DNA of 64,000 bases from NCBI RefSeq assembly GCF_056746865.1, contig NZ_CM163382.1, one strand, 5' to 3'. The translations under genes and the position numbers were made by a program. A model generated the notes under the pieces. It made no database searches. It had not been told where the DNA came from and saw only the letters and a program-made list of their open reading frames with translations. Below are positions 1,156-44,950 of the stretch, piece by piece (the stretch's first letter is position 1; every line of letters starts with the position of its first letter).

Positions 1156-2520
1156 ATGAGCGATAATGACACTATCGTAGCCCAGGCCACGCCTCCGGGA
1201 CGTGGCGGCGTTGGCATCCTGCGCATCTCCGGCCTCAAAGCCCGTGAAGTTGCCGAAACCGTGCTGGGTAAACTGCCTAAGCCGCGCTACGCCGATTATC
1301 TTCCGTTTAAAGACGCCGACGGCAGCGTGCTCGATCAGGGGATTGCGCTATGGTTCCCTGGCCCGAACTCGTTCACCGGCGAAGATGTGCTTGAACTGCA
1401 GGGTCATGGCGGTCCGGTGATCCTCGACCTGCTGTTAAAACGCATTCTGACCATTCCCGACCTGCGGATTGCCCGCCCTGGTGAGTTTTCCGAACGCGCG
1501 TTTCTTAACGATAAACTCGACTTAGCCCAGGCCGAGGCGATTGCGGATCTTATCGACGCCAGTTCGGAACAGGCGGCCCGTTCGGCACTTAACTCGCTGC
1601 AAGGCGCATTCTCCGCACGGGTCAACCATCTGGTGGAAGCCCTCACCCACTTGCGCATTTACGTCGAAGCGGCAATTGATTTCCCTGATGAAGAGATCGA
1701 TTTCCTCTCCGACGGCAAAATTGAAGCCCAGCTCAATGACGTGATTGCCGATCTTGATGCAGTGCGTGCTGAAGCACGTCAGGGTAGTTTGTTGCGCGAA
1801 GGGATGAAGGTGGTGATTGCCGGACGTCCTAACGCCGGTAAATCGAGCCTGTTAAACGCGCTGGCGGGCCGTGAAGCGGCAATCGTAACCGATATCGCCG
1901 GAACCACGCGTGACGTGCTGCGTGAGCATATCCACATTGACGGAATGCCGCTGCATATCATCGATACCGCCGGGCTACGTGAAGCCAGTGACGAAGTGGA
2001 ACGTATTGGTATCGAGCGCGCGTGGCAGGAAATTGAACAGGCCGACCGCGTGCTGTTTATGGTCGATGGCACCACGACAGACGCCGTTGATCCGGCAGAG
2101 ATCTGGCCGGAATTTATCGCCCGTCTGCCCGCCAAACTGCCGATCACCGTGGTACGCAATAAAGCCGATATAACCGGCGAAACGCTGGGAATGAGTGAAG
2201 TGAACGGCCATGCGTTGATTCGTCTCTCGGCAAGGACTGGCGAAGGCGTGGACGTGCTGCGTAACCATCTCAAACAGAGCATGGGCTTTGACACCAATAT
2301 GGAAGGCGGCTTCCTGGCGCGCCGTCGCCACTTACAGGCGCTGGAACAAGCGGCGGAACATCTACAACAGGGCAAAGCGCAACTGTTGGGAGCATGGGCG
2401 GGCGAACTGCTGGCGGAAGAGTTGCGCCTGGCGCAGCAGAACTTAAGCGAAATCACCGGGGAATTTACTTCAGACGACCTGCTTGGGCGGATTTTCTCCA
2501 GCTTCTGTATTGGTAAGTAA
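1156..2520 (+). CDS. mnmE: tRNA modification GTPase MnmE (TrmE)
   Basis: 454-aa ORF with G1 motif [20 protein letters not shown] and the C-terminal CIGK motif typical of MnmE. Position after yidC matches K-12 order. Confidence 0.95.
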
Positions 2521-2761
2521 CTGCGCTTACGAAGCCGTATTCTGACTGTCAGATGCGGCTTCGCTTCATTGTTAGCACTCCTGTTATGCCTCACCCCTTT
2601 TTTAAACATTAAAATTCTTACGTAATTTATAATCTTAAAAAAAAACATTTAATATTGCTCCCCGAACGATTGTGATTCGATTCACATTTAAACAATTTCA
2701 GAATAGACAAAAATTCTGAGTGTAATAATGTAGCCTCGTGTCTTTCGAGGATAAGTGCATT

Positions 2762-2836
2762 ATGAATATCTTACATATATGTGTGACCTCAAAATGGTTC
2801 AATATTGACAATAAGATTGTCGATCATCGCCCTTGA
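2762..2836 (+). CDS. tnaC: Tryptophanase operon leader peptide TnaC (24 aa; not in the ORF track)
   Basis: atgaatatcttacatatatgtgtgacctcaaaatggttcaatattgacaataagattgtcgatcatcgcccttga translates to MNILHICVTSKWFNIDNKIVDHRP*, the known TnaC sequence with Trp12 and the Pro24-stop stalling motif, about 220 bp upstream of tnaA. Confidence 0.9.
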   Translation: MNILHICVTSKWFNIDNKIVDHRP

Positions 2837-3041
2837 TTTGCCCTTCTGTAGCCATCACCAGAGCCAAACCGATTAGATTCAATGTGATCTATTTGTTTGC
2901 TATATCTTAATTTTGCCTTTTGCAAAGGCCATCTCTCGTTTATTTACTTGTTTTAGTAAATGATGGTACTTACATATATATCTGGCGAATTAATCGGTAT
3001 AGCAGATGTAATATTCACAGGGATCACTGTAATTAAAATAA
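2837..3041 (+). promoter_or_regulatory. tnaC-tnaA spacer: Rho-dependent attenuation region of the tna operon
   Basis: Untranslated spacer between the tnaC stop and tnaA start. In E. coli this spacer carries the Rho utilisation sites controlled by TnaC-mediated ribosome stalling (established knowledge). Individual rut/boxA elements were not mapped. Confidence 0.6.
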
Positions 3042-3056
3042 ATGAAGGATTATGTA

Positions 3057-4472
3057 ATGGAAAACTTTAAACATCTCCCTGAACCGTTCCGGATTCGTGT
3101 TATTGAGCCAGTAAAACGTACCACTCGCGCTTATCGTGAAGAGGCAATTATTAAATCCGGTATGAACCCGTTCCTGCTGGATAGCGAAGATGTGTTTATC
3201 GATTTACTGACCGACAGCGGCACCGGGGCGGTGACGCAGAGCATGCAGGCCGCGATGATGCGCGGCGACGAAGCTTACAGCGGCAGCCGCAGCTACTATG
3301 CGTTAGCCGAGTCAGTAAAAAATATCTTTGGTTATCAATACACTATTCCGACTCACCAGGGCCGTGGTGCAGAACAAATCTATATTCCGGTACTGATTAA
3401 AAAACGCGAGCAGGAAAAAGGCCTGGATCGCAGCAAAATGGTGGCGTTCTCAAACTATTTCTTTGATACCACGCAGGGCCATAGCCAGATTAACGGCTGT
3501 ACCGTGCGTAACGTCTATATCAAAGAAGCCTTCGATACGGGCGTGCGTTACGACTTTAAAGGCAACTTTGACCTCGAAGGATTAGAGCGCGGCATTGAAG
3601 AAGTTGGCCCGAATAACGTGCCGTATATCGTTGCAACCATCACCAGTAACTCCGCAGGCGGTCAGCCGGTTTCACTGGCAAACTTAAAAGCGATGTACAG
3701 CATCGCGAAGAAATACGATATTCCGGTGGTAATGGACTCCGCACGCTTTGCTGAAAACGCCTATTTCATCAAGCAGCGTGAAGCAGAATATAAAGACTGG
3801 ACCATCGAGCAGATCACCCGCGAAACCTACAAATATGCCGATATGCTGGCGATGTCCGCCAAGAAAGATGCGATGGTGCCGATGGGCGGCTTGCTGTGCA
3901 TGAAAGACGACAGCTTCTTTGATGTGTACACCGAATGCAGAACCCTTTGTGTGGTGCAGGAAGGCTTCCCGACATATGGTGGTCTGGAAGGCGGCGCGAT
4001 GGAGCGTCTGGCGGTAGGTCTGTATGACGGCATGAATCTGGACTGGCTGGCTTATCGTATCGCGCAGGTGCAGTATCTGGTCGATGGTCTGGAAGAGATT
4101 GGCGTTGTCTGCCAGCAGGCGGGCGGTCACGCGGCATTCGTTGATGCCGGTAAACTGCTGCCGCATATCCCGGCAGACCAGTTCCCGGCACAGGCGCTGG
4201 CCTGCGAGCTGTATAAAGTCGCCGGTATCCGTGCGGTAGAAATTGGCTCTTTCCTGTTAGGCCGCGATCCGAAAACCGGTAAACAACTGCCATGCCCGGC
4301 TGAACTGCTGCGTTTAACCATTCCGCGTGCAACATATACTCAAACACATATGGACTTCATTATTGAAGCCTTTAAACATGTGAAAGAGAACGCGGCGAAT
4401 ATTAAAGGGTTAACCTTTACCTACGAACCGAAAGTATTGCGTCACTTCACCGCAAAACTGAAAGAAGTTTAA
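3057..4472 (+). CDS. tnaA: Tryptophanase (tryptophan indole-lyase)
   Basis: Translation from the ATG at about 3057 ([26 protein letters not shown]...) matches remembered K-12 TnaA through ...FTAKLKEV. The track ORF starts 15 nt earlier at 3042 (MKDYV), which is probably not the native start. Confidence 0.95.
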
Positions 4473-4562
4473 TTAATACTACAGAGTGGCTATAAGGATG
4501 TTAGCCACTCTCTTACCCTACATCCTCAATAACAAAAATAGCCTTCCTCTAAAGGTGGCATC

Positions 4563-5810
4563 ATGACTGATCAAGCTGAAAAAAAACACTCTGCATTTTG
4601 GGGTGTTATGGTTATAGCAGGTACAGTAATTGGTGGAGGTATGTTTGCTTTACCTGTTGATCTTGCCGGTGCCTGGTTTTTCTGGGGTGCCTTTATCCTT
4701 ATCATTGCCTGGTTTTCAATGCTTCATTCCGGGTTGTTGTTATTAGAAGCAAATTTAAATTATCCCGTCGGCTCCAGTTTTAACACCATCACCAAAGATT
4801 TAATCGGTAACACCTGGAACATTATCAGCGGTATTACCGTTGCCTTCGTTCTCTATATCCTCACTTATGCCTATATCTCTGCTAATGGTGCGATCATTAG
4901 TGAAACGATATCAATGAATTTGGGTTATCACGCTAATCCACGTATTGTCGGGATCTGCACAGCCATTTTCGTTGCCAGCGTATTGTGGATAAGCTCGTTA
5001 GCCGCCAGTCGTATTACCTCGTTGTTCCTCGGGTTGAAGATTATCTCCTTTGTGATCGTGTTTGGTTCTTTCTTCTTCCAGGTCGATTATTCCATTCTGC
5101 GCGATGCCACCAGCACCACTGCGGGAACGTCTTACTCCCCGTATATCTTTATGGCTTTGCCGGTGTGTCTGGCGTCATTTGGTTTCCACGGCAATATTCC
5201 CAGCCTGATTATTTGCTATGGCAAACGCAAAGATAAGTTAATCAAAAGCGTGGTATTTGGTTCGCTGCTGGCGCTGGTGATTTATCTCTTCTGGCTCTAT
5301 TGCACGATGGGGAATATCCCGCGAGAAAGCTTTAAGGCGATAATCTCCTCAGGCGGCAACGTTGATTCGCTGGTCAAATCGTTCCTCGGCACCAAACAGC
5401 ACGGCATTATCGAGTTTTGCCTGCTGGTGTTCTCCAACTTAGCTGTTGCCAGTTCCTTCTTTGGTGTCACGCTGGGGTTGTTCGATTATCTGGCGGATCT
5501 GTTTAAGATTGATAACTCCCACGGCGGGCGTTTCAAAACCGTGCTGTTAACCTTCCTGCCACCTGCGTTGTTGTATCTGATCTTCCCGAACGGCTTCATT
5601 TACGGGATCGGCGGTGCCGGACTGTGTGCCACCATCTGGGCGGTCATTATCCCCGCGGTGCTGGCAATCAAAGCTCGCAAGAAGTTTCCCAATCAGATGT
5701 TCACGGTCTGGGGCGGCAATCTTATTCCGGCGATTGTCATTCTCTTTGGTATAACCGTAATTTTATGCTGGTTCGGTAACGTCTTTAACGTGTTACCTAA
5801 ATTTGGCTGA
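4563..5810 (+). CDS. tnaB: Low-affinity tryptophan permease
   Basis: 415-aa polytopic membrane protein (MTDQAEKKHSAFWGVMVIAGTVIGGGMFALP...) directly downstream of tnaA. Matches TnaB. Confidence 0.93.
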   Translation: MTDQAEKKHSAFWGVMVIAGTVIGGGMFALPVDLAGAWFFWGAFILIIAWFSMLHSGLLLLEANLNYPVGSSFNTITKDLIGNTWNIISGITVAFVLYILTYAYISANGAIISETISMNLGYHANPRIVGICTAIFVASVLWISSLAASRITSLFLGLKIISFVIVFGSFFFQVDYSILRDATSTTAGTSYSPYIFMALPVCLASFGFHGNIPSLIICYGKRKDKLIKSVVFGSLLALVIYLFWLYCTMGNIPRESFKAIISSGGNVDSLVKSFLGTKQHGIIEFCLLVFSNLAVASSFFGVTLGLFDYLADLFKIDNSHGGRFKTVLLTFLPPALLYLIFPNGFIYGIGGAGLCATIWAVIIPAVLAIKARKKFPNQMFTVWGGNLIPAIVILFGITVILCWFGNVFNVLPKFG

Positions 5811-5942
5811 TCCCTTCAAGAAGCCAGCCATTTCGCTGGCTTATTGCCTGTCAGGAAATCACTTATGTCCAAATGGCAACTCGCCTGATTCTCCTTCACC
5901 ACGTATGCTTTGCGTCACCTTACTATCAGGACGCTTTAGCCC

Positions 5943-7118
5943 ATGTCCCGCTTTTTGATTTGTAGTTTTGCCCTGGTTTTACTTTATCCCGCCGGGATTG
6001 ATATGTACCTCGTTGGTTTACCGCGCATCGCCGCCGATCTCAATGCCAGCGAAGCGCAGTTGCATATTGCGTTCTCCGTTTATCTGGCGGGCATGGCAGC
6101 TGCGATGTTATTTGCCGGTAAAGTGGCCGATCGTTCAGGGAGAAAGCCTGTCGCCATACCCGGCGCGGCGCTATTTATTATCGCCTCGGTGTTCTGTTCA
6201 CTGGCTGAAACCAGCACGTTATTTCTTGCAGGGCGCTTTCTACAGGGGCTGGGCGCGGGCTGTTGTTACGTGGTTGCGTTCGCCATTTTACGCGACACAC
6301 TGGATGATCGACGTCGGGCTAAAGTGCTGTCGTTACTCAACGGCATTACCTGCATCATTCCGGTGTTAGCGCCAGTGCTCGGACACCTGATTATGCTTAA
6401 ATTCCCGTGGCAGAGTCTGTTCTGGACGATGGCAACGATGGGCATCGCGGTACTGATGTTGTCTTTGTTTATTTTAAAAGAAACGCGCCCTGCGGCCCCC
6501 ACAAATTCGGACAAACCACGAGAAAATAGCGAGTCGCTGCTTAACCGGTTTTTCCTCAGCCGTGTTGTTATCACCACCCTCAGCGTTTCGGTGATCCTCA
6601 CCTTCGTCAACACGTCGCCGGTATTGCTGATGGAAATCATGGGTTTTGAGCGCGGAGAATACGCCACCATTATGGCGTTGACCGCTGGCGTCAGCATGAC
6701 CGTTTCATTCTCCACGCCATTTGCGCTGGGAATTTTTAAGCCACGTACGTTGATGATCACCTCGCAGGTATTATTCCTGGCGGCGGGCATCACCCTTGCC
6801 GTTTCACCTTCCCATGCGGTTTCTCTGTTTGGTATCACGCTGATTTGCGCCGGTTTCTCGGTAGGTTTTGGCGTAGCGATGAGTCAGGCGTTAGGGCCGT
6901 TTTCATTACGCGCGGGCGTAGCCAGCTCGACCTTAGGTATTGCGCAGGTTTGCGGTTCGTCACTGTGGATTTGGCTGGCAGCGGTGGTTGGTATCGGCGC
7001 ATGGAATATGCTGATCGGGATTCTGATTGCCTGTAGCATAGTGAGCCTGTTGCTGATTATGTTCGTCGCGCCTGGACGCCCGGTTGCCGCTCATGAAGAA
7101 ATCCATCACCACGCTTGA
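5943..7118 (+). CDS. mdtL: MFS multidrug efflux transporter MdtL
   Basis: 391-aa 12-TM MFS protein ([33 protein letters not shown]...). Position and sequence match K-12 MdtL. Confidence 0.9.
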
Positions 7119-24799: not shown

Positions 24800-25870
24800 T
24801 TAGCGTACAATCTCAATTGTTATCGTTGCAGTCGCGGTAAATGTTCCTGGCGCGGGGCGAGCCCCCGTGAGGCTTGCAGGAGCAGCAGAAAAAGTGACGC
24901 TACCGGCTTTTTCACCAAAGACGTTTGATTTACCCATATCTGTCGGTAGTTCACCACCGTTAACGTTGATTTCCTTATTATTTTTATCATAAATTTTTAT
25001 CCCAACGTTCGGGTTTGATGTCACGACCATTGAGTTGTCAGTACTGGGTTCGGTAGCATAAAAAGAGGTACTGATATCATCAGTATTTAGTATTCCTAAA
25101 TTTTCACACTCAATGGTGACGGTTTTGGTAATTTTATGCGTTGTCACGGTACTTCCAGCTACCGAAGAAAAATCTGCTGCAGGAATTTCTTTAAAATCAA
25201 AATTAATGGGTCTTAAACTGTTAATTTCACAGCTTTGCGGTGCAGTGATATCGCCACGAATATAAACATCGGCCATAGGTTGTGAGTAATCAACCGGAGT
25301 GTCACGGCTTATAGTTCCGTACAATTTTGCCACGAGAGTTTCAGGGACAATTAACTTTCCAGCAAAAGTCTTCTTAATATAAAAATAAATTATTGCTTTT
25401 GCACCACTGGAAATACTTAATGGGTCCGTGCGACTACATTTATATGAACCTCCAGTAGGCCTGTTAGCATGGTATTCAAAAGGTGCATTAATGTATCCTA
25501 CACCGAGAAGGTCTATCGATATTCCAACATCCAGATTAGGATTCAAATTAAAGTAGTTTACATTAGAACGAACACCCGCATAACTTAAGGCCTCGTTTAT
25601 TCTCGCTGTATAGTAAATATAAGGAAACTCCCCCACTTTCCCTGTATCACAATGGCAGTGAGCAGGATAAGAGTCCCCATTTGTCACGGTTTTATTAAAG
25701 GTCTCTCCCACTCTGTTCTCGTCTGCCGTAATCAGATAGCCGGAAAAATCAAGTGTGCTATGAAAGGCCCCATTATCTGAGGTGCAGATACCTTTTGGGG
25801 CCGCAAATGTTGCACCACTAAAGGAGAAGATAAAAACAGTCAAGCACCACTGTATAATATACTTGTTCAT
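24800..25870 (-). CDS. Fimbrial tip adhesin-like subunit of a chaperone-usher operon (LpfD-like)
   Basis: 356-aa secreted protein (signal peptide MNKYIIQWCLTVFIFSFSGATFA) and last gene of a subunit-chaperone-usher-adhesin cluster. The two-domain size is typical of tip adhesins. Confidence 0.7.
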   Translation of the reverse strand: MNKYIIQWCLTVFIFSFSGATFAAPKGICTSDNGAFHSTLDFSGYLITADENRVGETFNKTVTNGDSYPAHCHCDTGKVGEFPYIYYTARINEALSYAGVRSNVNYFNLNPNLDVGISIDLLGVGYINAPFEYHANRPTGGSYKCSRTDPLSISSGAKAIIYFYIKKTFAGKLIVPETLVAKLYGTISRDTPVDYSQPMADVYIRGDITAPQSCEINSLRPINFDFKEIPAADFSSVAGSTVTTHKITKTVTIECENLGILNTDDISTSFYATEPSTDNSMVVTSNPNVGIKIYDKNNKEINVNGGELPTDMGKSNVFGEKAGSVTFSAAPASLTGARPAPGTFTATATITIEIVR

Positions 25871-25880
25871 AAAAATCCTT

Positions 25881-28403
25881 TTAATGACATGTCACACCTT
25901 GTTCAATTAAGCCGCTTTCACTTTCTGGTATTGAAAGTGAATAATCGAAGGTGCATGTAGTGGCGGCATTTTCCCCCCAGGAGAGCATCACTTGCCCCTT
26001 TTCAGGAAGGCCGGAGAGATAAAGCTCCCCCAGGTCACCGACAATCCCTGAATCAGCAGAGCTTGTATTTTGTACGGCAGCAATAGCGCCAAAAGGTGCT
26101 GGCTTACCTTTTGCATTCACCACTTTGAAGAGTACGCGATAGCCCACGTGGGTAACAAATTCTGCTTTAACCACCGCGCCACGGGTGGGAACCATCGTAA
26201 CGACGGTATTATCAAGTTCTATATTCGACTTCGAGAAATAGTTATCGCTGATTGCTACCCGGTTTTCATCATAAGGGTTTAGCTGTGTCTTGACCGTATA
26301 ACCACGCCAGTCCGTCGCAGCACCACGCATATTGTCTATTTCTAACCCGGCAGCCCCTGGTGCTTTAACAAGAGCTATGGTTTCACCCAACTCCTGGCTT
26401 AACGTTACGCCTTCGCTGTGAGCCAGAATTCCCCCTCTGATACCATAATTCAGCCTCTGAGAATTTTGGCTGTAGTTATAGCTGCCGTTCACCGTGCCAT
26501 AAGTGCCATCATAGGTCAGGGACATATTACCGCCAACCTCATCATCATGGCTGTTATAGGACTGCATTAAATTCCAGGAAAGGTTATTTCTTTCCAGCGC
26601 CGTACCGCTGAGTCCAAGTTGATGTGAGCTACCGGAATTATCGTTTTGCGATACAGAATAGGTGGCGTAACTATTCCCCCACCAGCCCGATAAAGGAACA
26701 GATAAAGAGAGCATGTAGATCTGCTCACTGGTGTTATCACTGGCATTGTTGTTCCCCGTCCCCTGCCGGGCAGTATTGGAATAACTCCAGGAGACGTTCC
26801 ACGAGAGACGCTTCCAGCTACTGCTGTAGCCAAATTGCATTAATCGTTCAACATCATCGGTATGCCAGTACTGCTGGCGACTTAATGTCAGATATAAGTT
26901 GCCATAATCTCTGCCCAGTGATTGCGTTAACGTTCCTTCCACACGGCTGCGGCGGTTACCGGTTTCCCAGAAATCTTCAGGATTATTACGCCGGGACGCC
27001 CATTCATTGAGGGTATAATAACCTTCGGTGGAGTAACGATAGCCAACCAGGCGCAAGCTGGTATCCGTATCGTCAAAGCGTTTCGAGTACAGGAAGCGAT
27101 AAGACTGACCGGTTTCCGTATCATCATGGCTAAATTTCGCGCGAGCATGTGTCACATCGAAAGAAATTGCGCCCAATGCGCCAAGATCTTTACCGACACC
27201 CAAAGCGGCAGAACCATACTTTTCAGCAGCCTGCATACCTCCATATAAGGTGAAACCGTAGGGAAAACCATGAAGGATCTGAGCCTGAATAACGTCAGGG
27301 GTAAAGCCATCTTCATCGCGTAATTCTCCCACACTGACATCAACATCAGTTTGACCTTCACGTTTGAGGATGGCTAACGACGCATAAGGTTGAGTAAATC
27401 GTTGTTCGCTACCGTCTTCTTCTTTGATGGTTACGTCCAGATCACCACCTGTACTGGCGGTGTTGAGATCGGTAATTTCAAAAGCACCTTGTGGAACGGC
27501 TGACTGATAAATCACGTAGCCATTCTGGCGAATAATGACAGTGGCGTTAGACTTTGCAATCCCACGCACTACGGGGGCAAATCCGTTTTGGCTGGCAGGC
27601 AACATATCGTTATCGGTATACAAGCGTGCGCCACGAATTTGCGTACTGTCGAAGATATCGCTCGCCGTCCACGTATCACCTATCATAATCTGGCTTCTTA
27701 ACGCAGCTATATCACGTTGTATCCAGGTGCTTATAGAGTTGTATTCTGCACTGCCATCGGTCGTATTTAAGGTGCTGTAATTGCGTAATCGCCACGGCCC
27801 AATATTCAGTCCATTGCGCAGATTGAGATAACTGGTATCTGTCTCTTGTGAACCATAATCCGAACGTAGAGTATGTGAACCAGAAAAATCGTAGTTGATG
27901 GTGAGCGCGTTAATCCCCTCATCCCAACGCGAGGGGCTGATGTAATCATAAGCCATCGCATCCATATAGATTTGGGGAATGGAGATATTCAGTTGCAGTT
28001 TATCGCTGTCGAACTGCCATGATGAGCCTTCAATGCGTGGCCCAGGATCAATACAGACTGTTTCATCTACATCATTGAGCGATTTCAGCGCATCAACTTT
28101 TACGCCAAAGGTGGTTAGCGTTTTTTTAATAGCGACAAAGCAGGCGTGTAAATCAGCATCGGGATTATCCTGAACAAAGGTCACATCCTGACGTTCAAAC
28201 ATTTTACCGTTGATAAAAATATCAACGCTATAAACACCTGGGGGCATCAGGTTTGCCCGATTAAACTGGCGAATATCGACTCCGGATTGATGGTCGATTT
28301 CCAGAAGCGCCGGATTGAATACACTGACCTCGGCCATCAGGCTTTGCGAGAAAATCAGACACGTCCCTGCCGTGAGGCCAACCTTTATTCTGGTCGTCAT
28401 CAT
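25881..28403 (-). CDS. Fimbrial outer-membrane usher (LpfC/FimD-like)
   Basis: 840-aa ORF with N-terminal signal sequence and the FNPALLEID motif. Size and position match a chaperone-usher-pathway usher. Confidence 0.88.
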   Translation of the reverse strand: MMTTRIKVGLTAGTCLIFSQSLMAEVSVFNPALLEIDHQSGVDIRQFNRANLMPPGVYSVDIFINGKMFERQDVTFVQDNPDADLHACFVAIKKTLTTFGVKVDALKSLNDVDETVCIDPGPRIEGSSWQFDSDKLQLNISIPQIYMDAMAYDYISPSRWDEGINALTINYDFSGSHTLRSDYGSQETDTSYLNLRNGLNIGPWRLRNYSTLNTTDGSAEYNSISTWIQRDIAALRSQIMIGDTWTASDIFDSTQIRGARLYTDNDMLPASQNGFAPVVRGIAKSNATVIIRQNGYVIYQSAVPQGAFEITDLNTASTGGDLDVTIKEEDGSEQRFTQPYASLAILKREGQTDVDVSVGELRDEDGFTPDVIQAQILHGFPYGFTLYGGMQAAEKYGSAALGVGKDLGALGAISFDVTHARAKFSHDDTETGQSYRFLYSKRFDDTDTSLRLVGYRYSTEGYYTLNEWASRRNNPEDFWETGNRRSRVEGTLTQSLGRDYGNLYLTLSRQQYWHTDDVERLMQFGYSSSWKRLSWNVSWSYSNTARQGTGNNNASDNTSEQIYMLSLSVPLSGWWGNSYATYSVSQNDNSGSSHQLGLSGTALERNNLSWNLMQSYNSHDDEVGGNMSLTYDGTYGTVNGSYNYSQNSQRLNYGIRGGILAHSEGVTLSQELGETIALVKAPGAAGLEIDNMRGAATDWRGYTVKTQLNPYDENRVAISDNYFSKSNIELDNTVVTMVPTRGAVVKAEFVTHVGYRVLFKVVNAKGKPAPFGAIAAVQNTSSADSGIVGDLGELYLSGLPEKGQVMLSWGENAATTCTFDYSLSIPESESGLIEQGVTCH

Positions 28404-28427
28404 AATACGCCTATCCTTTTCCCTTGC

Positions 28428-29159
28428 TTACAGCGTCATTTTTATCGGGTCACTGACTGCGCCGTAATCATTAATAAATCGCCAGATCATTTGGCCTCCC
28501 GCAGAATTAGCAGGTAAAGGTAACGTGAGCGTTTCAAAAGGACGGATCATGTTGAGGGGCACATCATGACCATCAACGATGACATCCATCACACTGATAT
28601 GAATCGGGTTGGGATTCTCTACAATCAGGTTTCGCCCTTCCCGGTGCCACTTCACCTTCGGTGCAGCATCTTCGGGAATCAGGCGAATGCTTGCCGGTCG
28701 CCAGAACAGCTTGATACGCGTTTTAACTGCGATTTCCAGTGAGTTCGCCGCTTTGTTGCTCGCAGAGGGCGGAATATTTTTAATATTCAGCCAGAAGACT
28801 GACTCGCGATCATCAGGCAATGACACACCTTTGGTATGAATAATGCGTAATACTTTTTCTTGCGCGGGTTCTAATCGTGATACCGGAGGAATAACGGTAA
28901 ACGGTGCTTTGCTTTTATCCTCTTTATTAAACGGATCTACCCATGCCTGGATGAGATAAGGAATTTTTTCTTCCTTGCTAAATACAGAAATAGATTTATC
29001 TGGGTTATTACTTAAGTAAACTACCCGTGTACCACCAATGACAACGCCTGCATAGGTTAATGCTGGTTGGACTAAAAAAACACTGAGTATAATCGCGGTA
29101 AATAACTTACATGAAACGGTTGTTTTAAAGAGCCTGATTAAACAACTTTTTCTGGACAT
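28428..29159 (-). CDS. Periplasmic fimbrial chaperone (PapD/FimC-like)
   Basis: 243-aa ORF with signal peptide and chaperone-like motifs (VVIGGTRVVY; NPxxxP-like region). It sits between the major subunit and the usher. Confidence 0.85.
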   Translation of the reverse strand: MSRKSCLIRLFKTTVSCKLFTAIILSVFLVQPALTYAGVVIGGTRVVYLSNNPDKSISVFSKEEKIPYLIQAWVDPFNKEDKSKAPFTVIPPVSRLEPAQEKVLRIIHTKGVSLPDDRESVFWLNIKNIPPSASNKAANSLEIAVKTRIKLFWRPASIRLIPEDAAPKVKWHREGRNLIVENPNPIHISVMDVIVDGHDVPLNMIRPFETLTLPLPANSAGGQMIWRFINDYGAVSDPIKMTL

Positions 29160-29206
29160 AACGACTCCCTGGCCAAAGCCAACTGAATAAAAAGGCCCTT
29201 GATAAA

Positions 29207-29779
29207 TTATTTCTTATATTCGACAGTAAATTGTGAATCGGCGTTCGCCGTACCCGCCGTTACAGTTGCATTGGTTGCCACATAGCGTGCAATAAACTTC
29301 ATTTCAGCCTTGCCTTCAGCGTCGATAGCGGTATAGGCAGAATCGTTATAAAGTTTAACCTGCGAGTTATCTGACTGGTTAAAAATACGAATACCGACAC
29401 CCGTTGCCGCAATCGCTTGTCCTGTACCGGTAAAATCGCCAGGGTTGCCCGCTGTAAGCGGCGTACCCACTTTCAGGTCGCCGTCGCCGCCAGGCGCTTC
29501 TGTACCATCAAAACGAACGGCTGCCTGAGTGTAGGTTGCCGGGCACTTTTCAAGTTTAATACTGAACTGCTGTGGTGACGCCAGACTACCTACACCTGAA
29601 AAAGCATTTTTACTGACTTTACCCAGTGGTACGGTTTGATCGGCTGTATCGGAGGTAACTTCACAAGTAGTGTCGACAATTTCACCGACGAAGTGAACAA
29701 CACCATCTTCTGCCAGTGCATGTCCGGCCAGCATTAAAGATGCCAGAGTGAATGCACCGCCTATAATATTACGCTTCAT
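29207..29779 (-). CDS. Major fimbrial subunit (type 1 / Lpf-like pilin)
   Basis: 190-aa ORF with signal peptide (MKRNIIGGAFTLASLMLAGHALA), a conserved Cys pair and a C-terminal beta-strand motif (FTVEYKK) typical of chaperone-usher pilins. First gene of the cluster, with an AT-rich region upstream. Confidence 0.85.
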   Translation of the reverse strand: MKRNIIGGAFTLASLMLAGHALAEDGVVHFVGEIVDTTCEVTSDTADQTVPLGKVSKNAFSGVGSLASPQQFSIKLEKCPATYTQAAVRFDGTEAPGGDGDLKVGTPLTAGNPGDFTGTGQAIAATGVGIRIFNQSDNSQVKLYNDSAYTAIDAEGKAEMKFIARYVATNATVTAGTANADSQFTVEYKK

Positions 29780-29999: not shown

Positions 30000-30750
30000 T
30001 CAATGGGCATATGAATAATGGAATTATTGATATCACTTATAATAAATATCCTCCGGCATAGCCGGAGGTTTTTCAAATGCGCCTATAAGGCTCTCTTACC
30101 AGCCGCGCCCTAACAGGCGCACACGATCTGACATTTGCATCCAACTTCGTTACTTACGGCCCGTAAACGGGCTGCCCGGATAGGGAATCGATAACTGCTC
30201 TCCCATTTTATCCTCTTCAAGCTGGTGCTTTATGTAATCCTGTATCTTCGCCGTGTTCTTACCCACTGTATCGACGTAGTACCCTCTGCACCAGAACTCC
30301 CTGTTCCTGTATTTGAATTTCAAATCACCAAACTGCTCGTAAAGCATCAGACTGCTTTTCCCTTTCAGATATCCCATAAACCCGGATACGCTCATTTTAG
30401 GCGGGATCTCCACAAGCATATGGATATGATCTGCACAGCATTCAGCTTCCAGAATCCGTACGCTTTTCCACTCACACAGCTTTCTCAAAATACTGCCTAT
30501 TGCTCTACGCTTCTCTCTGTAGAACACCTGTCTTCGGTATTTTGGCGCAAAAACTATGTGATATTTACAGTTCCATCGGGTGTGCGCTAAGCTCTTTTCG
30601 TTCCCCATTGGGACCCCCTTTTGATTTCTTGTTTGACACTTGCAGTTGCCAGACCGCAAGGTGTTTTAACAAATCAAAAGGGGTTTTAATAACTGGCTCA
30701 AAGCTGAAAGCTTTCCGGAACCCCCAGCCTAGCTGGGGGTTTTCTGTGCA
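30000..30750 (-). mobile_element. IS200/IS605-family insertion element (single tnpA); boundaries approximate
   Basis: Contains an IS200-type HUH transposase ORF flanked by sub-terminal hairpins (cctccggcatagccggagg at about 30050; cccccagcctagctggggg at about 30722). Exact ends were not determined. Confidence 0.6.
30150..30608 (-). CDS. tnpA: IS200-type transposase TnpA (HUH, Y1 family)
   Basis: MGNEKSLAHTRWNCKYHIVFAPKYRRQVFY...ADHIHMLVEIPPK... carries the HUH motif (HIH) and the conserved IS200 TnpA N-terminus. The track ORF starts 17 codons earlier at 30659. Confidence 0.88.
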   Translation of the reverse strand: MGNEKSLAHTRWNCKYHIVFAPKYRRQVFYREKRRAIGSILRKLCEWKSVRILEAECCADHIHMLVEIPPKMSVSGFMGYLKGKSSLMLYEQFGDLKFKYRNREFWCRGYYVDTVGKNTAKIQDYIKHQLEEDKMGEQLSIPYPGSPFTGRK

Positions 30751-34159: not shown

Positions 34160-34509
34160 ACGCGTCCTGACTGTAATTTGAGAACGAATTTAAACCGCTT
34201 CACCTTGAAAAAACTACATTTTTTTCATCGTGAAATGGACAGAGGATAAATTGTTCAATAACGGATTATCCCCGCTGACGAAAGCGCCATTTTCGACCAT
34301 CGTCACGCCTTTTGTCTGCAGAAAATTAAGGCAATACCTTCATTTAAGCGTCAGGTGGATGTTTTTGCTCTTATTTCGATCAATGAATAAACGGGAAAAC
34401 AGGGGGTTTTATATCAGCAGGATCTATGTGAACGCTCTTCAGGACGGGGCAACGCGTAAAAAAAAGCCAGCCTGTTTCCAGACTGGCTTTTGTGCTTTTC
34501 AAGCCGGTG

Positions 34510-42700: not shown

Positions 42701-44590
42701 TTATGCGCTACGACGCAGCATACCCTGTTTTTTCAGCCACACCAGCAGAATGGAGATGGCCGCAGGCGTGACGCCAGAAATACGCGAAGCCTGACCGATA
42801 GAGGCCGGTTTGTGATCGTTAAGTTTGGCGATCACTTCGTTAGAAAGACCGGATACCTGGCGGTAATCCAGCGTCGCTGGTAGCAGGGTGTTCTCGTTAC
42901 GCAGCTGCTTTTCGATCTCATCTTGCTGGCGCGCGATATAACCTTCGTATTTAACCTGAATCTCAACCTGTTCCGCCGCCTGTTCGTCTGTCAACGCAGG
43001 GGCAAACGGCGTCAGCGTGGTTAATTTTTCATAAGTCATTTCCGGACGACGCAGCAGATCTTCACCACTGGCTTCACGGGAAAGTGGCGCAGTCAGGTGA
43101 GCATTCACTTCGGCTGCAGCTTCCGCCGACGGGGTTACCCAGGTCGATTTCAGACGCTGACGCTCACGCTCGATATTCTCAAGTTTCTCGTTAAAGCGCG
43201 CCCAACGTTCGTCATCCACCAGGCCCAGTTCACGACCGATTTCAGTCAAACGCAGATCCGCATTATCTTCGCGCAGCATCAGACGATATTCTGCGCGCGA
43301 AGTAAACATACGATACGGTTCTTTGGTTCCTAAAGTGCACAGGTCATCAACCAGTACGCCGAGATACGCCTGAGAACGCGCCGGAGCCCAACCTTCTTTG
43401 TCAGCAGACAGACGGGCAGCGTTAAGACCAGCCAGCAAACCTTGCGCAGCGGCTTCTTCGTAACCGGTAGTGCCGTTAATCTGACCAGCAAAGAACAGCC
43501 CCTGGATAAACTTGCTCTCCAGCGTCGGTTTCAGGTCGCGTGGATCGAAGAAGTCATACTCAATGGCATAACCCGGACGCACGATCTTCGCGTTTTCCAT
43601 CCCCTGCATGGAGCGGACGATTTGCATCTGCACATCGAACGGCAGGCTGGTGGAGATACCGTTCGGATAAATTTCGTTTGAGGTCAGCCCTTCCGGTTCA
43701 AGGAAGATCTGATGCTGATTTCTGTCGGCGAAGCGCATGACTTTGTCTTCGATCGACGGGCAGTAGCGTGGGCCGACACCTTCGATCACCCCTGCATACA
43801 TTGGGCTACGATCGAGGTTACTGCGGATCACATCATGGGTTTTCTCGTTGGTATGGGTGATATAACACGGCACCTGCTGTGGATGCTGGGACGCATTACC
43901 CATAAACGAGAATACCGGCATTGGGTTATCGCCATGCTGTTGCGCCAGCACGCTGAAGTCGATAGTACGCGCATCAATACGCGGCGGTGTCCCGGTTTTC
44001 AGACGACCAACGCGCAGCGGCAGTTCACGCAAACGGCGAGAGAGCGGAATGGACGGCGGATCACCAGCACGACCACCGCTGTAGTTATCCAGACCGATAT
44101 GAATTTTACCGTCGAGGAACGTCCCAACGGTGAGCACGACGGCTTTGGCACGGAACTTCAGTCCCATTTGGGTAACAGCACCAACCACGCGATCGTTTTC
44201 GACAATAAGATCTTCAACCGCCTGCTGGAAGATCATCAGGTTCGGTTGGTTCTCCAGCGCCGTACGTACCGCCTGCCGGTAGAGCACACGATCCGCCTGA
44301 GCACGGGTAGCGCGAACCGCTGGTCCCTTGCTTGCGTTTAGTATCCTAAACTGGATACCCGCCTGATCGATCGCTTTCGCCATCAGACCGCCGAGTGCAT
44401 CCACTTCTTTTACCAGATGTCCCTTCCCAATACCGCCGATCGCCGGGTTGCAGCTCATCTGCCCCAGAGTGTCGATATTGTGTGTCAAAAGCAGAGTCTG
44501 TTGACCCATACGCGCCGCGGCCATCGCGGCCTCGGTGCCTGCATGACCCCCGCCAATGATGATGACGTCAAAAGGATCCGGATAAAACAT
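42701..44590 (-). CDS. mnmG: tRNA uridine-5-carboxymethylaminomethyl modification enzyme MnmG (GidA)
   Basis: 629 aa; N-terminal FAD-binding motif ([15 protein letters not shown]). Confidence 0.96.
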
Positions 44591-44678: not shown

Positions 44679-44950
44679 GGATCCTGGGTATTAAAAAGAA
44701 GATCTATTTATTTAGAGATCTGTTCTATTGTGATCTCTTATTAGGATCGCACTACCCTGTGGATAACAAGGATCCAGCTTTTAAGATCAACAACCTGGAA
44801 AGGATCATTAACTGTGAATGATCGGTGATCCTGGACCGTATAAGCTGGGATCAGAATGAGGGGTTATACACAACTCAAAAACTGAACAACGGTTGTTCTT
44901 TGGATAACTACCGGTTGATCCAAGCTTCCTGACAGAGTTATCCACAGTGG
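44679..44950. other. Chromosomal replication origin oriC (DnaA boxes R1-R4, three AT-rich 13-mers, GATC cluster)
   Basis: 13-mers gatctatttattt (44701-44713), gatctgttctatt (44717-44729) and gatctcttattag (44732-44744); DnaA box R1 tgtggataa (44758-44766) and R4 ttatccaca (44938-44946); dense GATC sites. Near-identical to my memory of the K-12 minimal oriC, located between mnmG and mioC. Confidence 0.95.

Follow-up and report, generated by a model that had tools for sequence, protein, structure and literature searches.

The tnaCAB operon in an oriC-proximal segment of an Escherichia coli chromosome is complete and predicted to be functional

A tryptophanase (tna) locus raises the question of whether the operon is complete and whether the strain that carries it would be indole-positive. 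We examined this for positions 2762-5810, on the plus strand, of the window, by which we mean the whole 64,000-nucleotide stretch of DNA that was analysed. This interval contains three genes, tnaC, tnaA, and tnaB, with 0 frameshifts and 0 internal stops upon translation and alignment with Escherichia coli K-12 (Table 1). The original prediction, that all three genes lie intact in this interval, was exact in its coordinates, and the reading frames are unbroken on translation. The operon is preceded by mnmE and followed by mdtL, which is the gene order of K-12. Every sequence element of the operon is present and intact, and the sequence contains no evidence against this identity, only minor caveats. 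The feature is almost certainly the canonical tnaCAB operon of E. coli in complete form, and it is predicted to function.

Table 1. Positions of the tna genes, their regulatory DNA, and the IS1 element in the window.
Feature	Position	Strand	Description
CAP (cAMP receptor protein) site of the tna promoter	2671-2686	+	TGTGATTCGATTCACA, perfect TGTGA-N6-TCACA palindrome
tnaC	2762-2836	+	Leader peptide gene; 24 codons and TGA
boxA-like sequence and downstream rut region	2828-2900	+	Extent approximate
tnaC-tnaA spacer	2837-3056	+	220 nt, length as in K-12
tnaA	3057-4472	+	Tryptophanase, PLP-dependent beta-eliminating lyase; 471 aa
Stem-loop between tnaA and tnaB	4483-4511	+	10-bp stem; RNA fold -15.9 kcal/mol, z = -3.2
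tnaB	4563-5810	+	Low-affinity tryptophan:H+ symporter; 415 aa
GC-rich hairpin just 3' of tnaB	5817-5846	+	RNA fold -14.6 kcal/mol, z = -4.1
IS1	14273-15040		768 bp, full length; termini GGTAATGACTCC... and GGTGATGCTGCC...

A chance pattern is excluded because, of 5426 complete E. coli genomes, 5424 have a match to the 3451-bp region that includes the operon (2500-5950), at 95-100% identity and with annotated tnaC, tnaA, and tnaB. Using this region as the query against the same set, we found at least 80% of it as one colinear piece in 5395 of the 5426 genomes (99.4%), which is an upper estimate of intactness since colinearity leaves point frameshifts possible. An intact tna operon is clearly the default in E. 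coli. The original prediction had also held the intact operon to be worth noting; the intactness stands, but with this many colinear genomes the noteworthiness was generous. Many genomes, among them CFSAN061770, WP8-S17-ESBL-12, EC1, and SCU-313, are 100% identical to the query region at the nucleotide level and are annotated with all three genes between mnmE and mdtL, and the identical allele recurs across many isolates of independent origin (human, poultry, and water). An identity of 99% or more to this allele was seen in only 124 of the 5425 matching records; the others are at 95-99%. Judged by these comparisons, the window is from a minority E. coli lineage, and its allele marks phylogeny rather than a difference in function.

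The leader peptide gene translates to MNILHICVTSKWFNIDNKIVDHRP followed by a stop. It has been determined that Trp12, Asp16, Ile19, and Pro24 are the critical residues of TnaC, that a change of any of them abolishes stalling, and that RF2 reads the UGA stop of tnaC (PMC8429421). All four residues are present here. Trp12 and the Pro24-stop pair, which were expected to be retained, are encoded by TGG at codon 12 and CCT at codon 24, with TGA as codon 25 (2834-2836) directly after Pro24; Asp16 (GAC) and Ile19 (ATT) are also kept. The peptide is 100% identical to that of K-12 MG1655. Both genes are 75 nt long, and codon-by-codon comparison showed 3 nucleotide differences, all synonymous (N17, K18, and H22). 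TnaC scored 71.1 bits against Pfam PF08053 (Tna_leader; cut-off 25) and 44.3 bits against the NCBIfam equivalog TIGR02616 (cut-off 23.55), and it matches over its full length the 24-residue TnaC chain in the stalled-ribosome structure 6i0y.

Few nascent-peptide sensors are as well characterised as the tna leader, whose mechanism is also known from work of the Yanofsky laboratory. Transcription would initiate at a promoter that depends on CAP-cAMP, so that glucose would repress it, and a ribosome would translate the 24 codons of tnaC. Without free L-tryptophan, RF2 would free TnaC at the UGA codon, and the ribosome would depart and leave rut exposed for Rho, which would load and terminate the paused polymerase inside the 220-nt spacer. 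With L-tryptophan, one molecule would occupy a pocket in the exit tunnel formed by the 23S rRNA together with Trp12, Ile15, and Asp16 of TnaC, where it would be held between the A752:U2609 base pair of the rRNA and the TnaC residues. [quoted passage not shown] The stalled ribosome would mask rut and Rho would not load, so that tnaA and tnaB would be transcribed; TnaA would convert tryptophan to indole, pyruvate, and ammonia, and TnaB would act as the tryptophan permease (mechanism, including the masking of rut, from PMC8429421). Read from the DNA, this operon has what each of these steps would require.

The regulatory DNA is largely that of K-12. In the alignment of the mnmE-tnaC intergenic region the CAP palindrome is identical to K-12, and the part of this site in catabolite repression is established. 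The -10 element and the transcription start presumably lie at about 2720-2740, going by the published 319-nt leader. At 2828-2836, overlapping the tnaC stop, is CGCCCTTGA, which is unchanged from K-12 and which we take to be the boxA-like element of Konan and Yanofsky 2000. The first 92 nt past the tnaC stop are 100% identical to K-12 and contain the putative rut site, whose known position is immediately downstream of tnaC (PMC8429421). The spacer carries three substitutions relative to K-12 (C for T at 2929, A for G at 2968, and A for G at 2972) and no indels. Termination by Rho does not call for a particular RNA fold in such a spacer. Upstream of tnaC, position 2715 in the promoter and position 2746, which would fall in the 5' leader given the presumed transcription start, are also substituted.

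In total, the non-coding regulatory DNA near the start of the operon differs from K-12 by five single bases and one 1-nt indel. These differences, in an allele found at 99% identity or more in a minority of the records, would be the basis for a reading in which the operon is intact and the substitutions at 2715, 2746, 2929, 2968, and 2972 shift basal read-through or inducibility relative to K-12. We regard this as extremely improbable: the elements with a defined role (CAP palindrome, tnaC peptide, boxA-like sequence, 92 nt past the stop, and spacer length) are all unchanged, and the spread of the same allele over independent human, poultry, and water isolates is as for a neutral lineage marker.

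A sigma-70 consensus scan gave no plus-strand promoter upstream of tnaC and one hit overall, compared with 5.8 expected by chance; the scan is uninformative, and a miss of the tna promoter is expected, because this promoter is CAP-dependent with a weak -35 element. Rfam has no family for the tna leader and gave no match within 2500-6000. The 90-nt region between tnaA and tnaB, which contains a stem-loop, is identical to K-12. The hairpin just 3' of tnaB, which none of 200 shuffled sequences (0/200) matched in folding, is probably the terminator of the operon. A simple terminator scan, with 5 hits compared with 4.0 in shuffles, did not flag this hairpin because its T-run is short.

The tryptophanase itself is unchanged from K-12. 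Reading is uninterrupted across 3042-4472 in the tnaA frame, and a mechanical list of open reading frames placed the start at the ATG at 3042 (476 aa). We rejected this in favour of the ATG at 3057: annotation in both K-12 MG1655 and CFSAN061770 begins the gene there, and AAGGA precedes this ATG by 8 nt. From this start, the gene is 1416 nt long in both this strain and K-12, with 33 nucleotide differences that are all synonymous and 100% amino acid identity. TnaA scored 1010.2 bits against the NCBIfam equivalog TIGR02617 (cut-off 825.8), covering residues 5-471, but reached only 486 against the tyrosine phenol-lyase model, below its cut-off of 720.7. It also matches Pfam PF01212 (Beta_elim_lyase) and, over residues 1-471, PDB 2c44, the E. 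coli tryptophanase. The PLP lysine, K270, is present in the context MSAKKD.

The permease gene is an unbroken ORF of 415 codons that starts 90 nt past the tnaA stop. It is 1248 nt long in both this strain and K-12, with 29 nucleotide differences (26 synonymous and 3 non-synonymous codons), and the protein is 99.3% identical, with the three substitutions L143I, S185T, and F192S. TnaB scored 923.9 bits against the NCBIfam equivalog NF007235 (cut-off 497) over residues 1-415 and matches Pfam PF03222 (Trp_Tyr_perm). It scored 511.1 against the Mtr-type model NF007789, just below the cut-off of 515, and was likewise below the cut-off of the TyrP model. At the DNA level, tnaB has 100% identity to a stretch of CFSAN061770 annotated as an intact tnaB (WP_000131919.1).

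Tryptophan also enters E. coli through the permeases Mtr and AroP, so that loss of TnaB alone would leave indole production in place. That a cryptic defect makes the strain indole-negative, for example hampered tryptophan uptake through F192S, which is non-conservative and lies in a membrane protein, or a defect acting in trans, is barely credible: organisms that have tnaA and are still indole-negative have been published (PMC8537960), but the indole-making enzyme here is 100% identical to that of K-12, TnaB scores far above its equivalog cut-off, and other genomes have its allele annotated as intact. We also consider it very unlikely that the five non-coding substitutions or F192S would measurably shift basal or induced indole relative to K-12. 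For the canonical tnaCAB operon, the predicted phenotype is indole-positive, tryptophan-inducible, and glucose-repressible. We infer that the elements of the operon work and that the strain is hence indole-positive; as a prediction from sequence, the indole-positive phenotype is sound.

We compared the operon gene by gene with tnaCAB (b3707-b3709) of K-12 MG1655 (NC_000913.3, 3886000-3893500). A frameshift or premature stop in tnaA or tnaB was the point on which the prediction of an intact operon could have failed; exact alignment showed none, with equal gene lengths and no indels. The two operons share the order mnmE-tnaC-tnaA-tnaB-mdtL, the amino acid sequences of TnaC and TnaA, the CAP site, the boxA-like sequence, the 92 nt past the tnaC stop, the 220-nt length of the spacer, and the tnaA-tnaB intergenic region. 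They differ by approximately 2.3-4% at synonymous and non-coding nucleotides, by the three substitutions in TnaB and three in the spacer, and by a single 1-nt indel in the intergenic DNA on each side of the operon. TnaC and TnaA together have 36 differing codons, all synonymous, and the whole operon has 62 synonymous compared with 3 non-synonymous codon differences. This ratio indicates the signature of purifying selection on what would be a working operon.

Disrupted operons provide a second comparison. Among the rare disrupted E. coli, SK1144 has an IS5 transposase annotated inside the matched tna region, whereas there is none here, and CUWW06 retains 6% of the query, whereas the operon here is complete. 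Insertion sequences have reportedly damaged tna in Shigella (Rezwan, Lan and Reeves 2004). These damaged operons share the chromosomal locus and the ancestral operon with the one here but are interrupted or deleted; in this strain there is no insertion, deletion, or frameshift.

The feature is already known and is a textbook tnaCAB operon. It holds no new biology because, among complete E. coli genomes, approximately 99% have tnaCAB unbroken, and because the mechanism is well characterised. Its value is in annotation and quality control: it predicts a standard diagnostic phenotype, indole-positive, and the window is confirmed as oriC-proximal E. coli chromosome.

The wider window differs from CFSAN061770, whose operon shows no difference, in that this strain has an IS1 in espY4 and CFSAN061770 lacks it. 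The original prediction took an IS1 in the window as a sign that insertion sequences are active in this genome, and the details of the element bear this out: it is full length, lies between the copies of a perfect 9-bp target duplication (TAAAAAAGG at 14264-14272 and 15041-15049), and is absent from relatives with identical flanks. It contains an InsB-sized ORF (167 aa) at 14288-14791 and an inverted repeat match at 15018-15040 on the minus strand. With the uninterrupted gene of CFSAN061770 as reference, the insertion point is 42 nt in from the 5' end of espY4. Those relatives that match its flanks at 100% and lack this IS1 gave 91% coverage in two pieces, and the exact IS1/espY4 junction was found as one contiguous match in no complete genome. 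The only full-coverage match to the junction, in EFF60, was set aside, as it consisted of two pieces over 513 bp, a different arrangement. The element looks recently inserted, which the sequence at its borders and in the relatives supports. It leaves the tna operon untouched and has no bearing on it. In the window, GATC density and DnaA boxes were noted as pointers to oriC.

A full-length IS1 interrupts the type III secretion system effector gene espY4 in this chromosome, 42 nt in from the gene's 5' end. The element is flanked by perfect 9-bp copies of TAAAAAAGG at 14264-14272 and 15041-15049. What remains of espY4 after the insertion is an N-terminally truncated open reading frame of 783 aa (11906-14257, minus strand). 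Relatives with 100% identical flanks have no IS1 at this site, and a search of 5426 complete E. coli genomes for the IS1/espY4 junction as a contiguous match found none.

The disrupted gene lies between yieH and phoU, an interval that holds the cbr, yieKL and bgl genes in the comparison strain K-12. On this basis, the interval would be a known polymorphic locus. The coordinates of these and other features are collected below.

Features of the window outside the tna operon
Feature	Position	Strand	Remarks
yieH-phoU interval	11906-19573		Contains espY4, a pentapeptide-repeat protein gene and an 839-aa ORF
IS1	14273-15040	-	Full length, 768 bp; perfect 9-bp target-site duplication
Pentapeptide-repeat protein gene	15397-16584	+	
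839-aa ORF	17054-19573	-	Annotated in relatives as type III effector or hypothetical protein
Chaperone-usher fimbrial operon	24800-29779	-	Four genes; between pstS and glmS
Second insertion sequence	about 30150-30741	-	Between glmS and the fimbrial operon
STnc410 sRNA match	34243-34400		Between glmU and atpC
rRNA operon	60765-64000	+	Start only
16S rRNA	60765-62306	+	
tRNA	62392-62464		In the rRNA operon
StyR-44 match	62545-62653		In the rRNA operon
23S rRNA	from 62661	+	Continues past the window end

The tna allele (2500-5950) is shared at 99% identity or more by just 124 of the 5425 matching records, the remainder having 95-99%. The window thus comes from a minority lineage of E. coli. An in-frame ATG is present 15 nt upstream (3042-3056) of the annotated start of the tryptophanase gene tnaA, and because of this additional codon mechanical ORF callers give a product of 476 aa. 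K-12 has the same sequence with the same upstream ATG, and there the annotated start is the one that yields 471 aa.

At about 44700-44950, between mnmG (42701-44590) and mioC, the window seems to include oriC, the origin of chromosome replication. GATC sites number 18 in 470 nt here, compared with about 1.8 expected. DnaA boxes were found at 44938 (TTATCCACA), 44864 (TTATACACA) and 44758 (TGTGGATAA).

In the closest genome, the fimbrial operon is annotated as the long polar fimbriae genes lpfA/B/C-O113 together with one fimbrial protein. The ORF of the neighboring second insertion sequence matches the IS200C tnpA of CFSAN061770, an E. coli genome identical to the window across the tna region. 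This element also contains a 146-bit Rfam match (30618-30741) to STnc490, an RNA associated with the 5' end of IS200.
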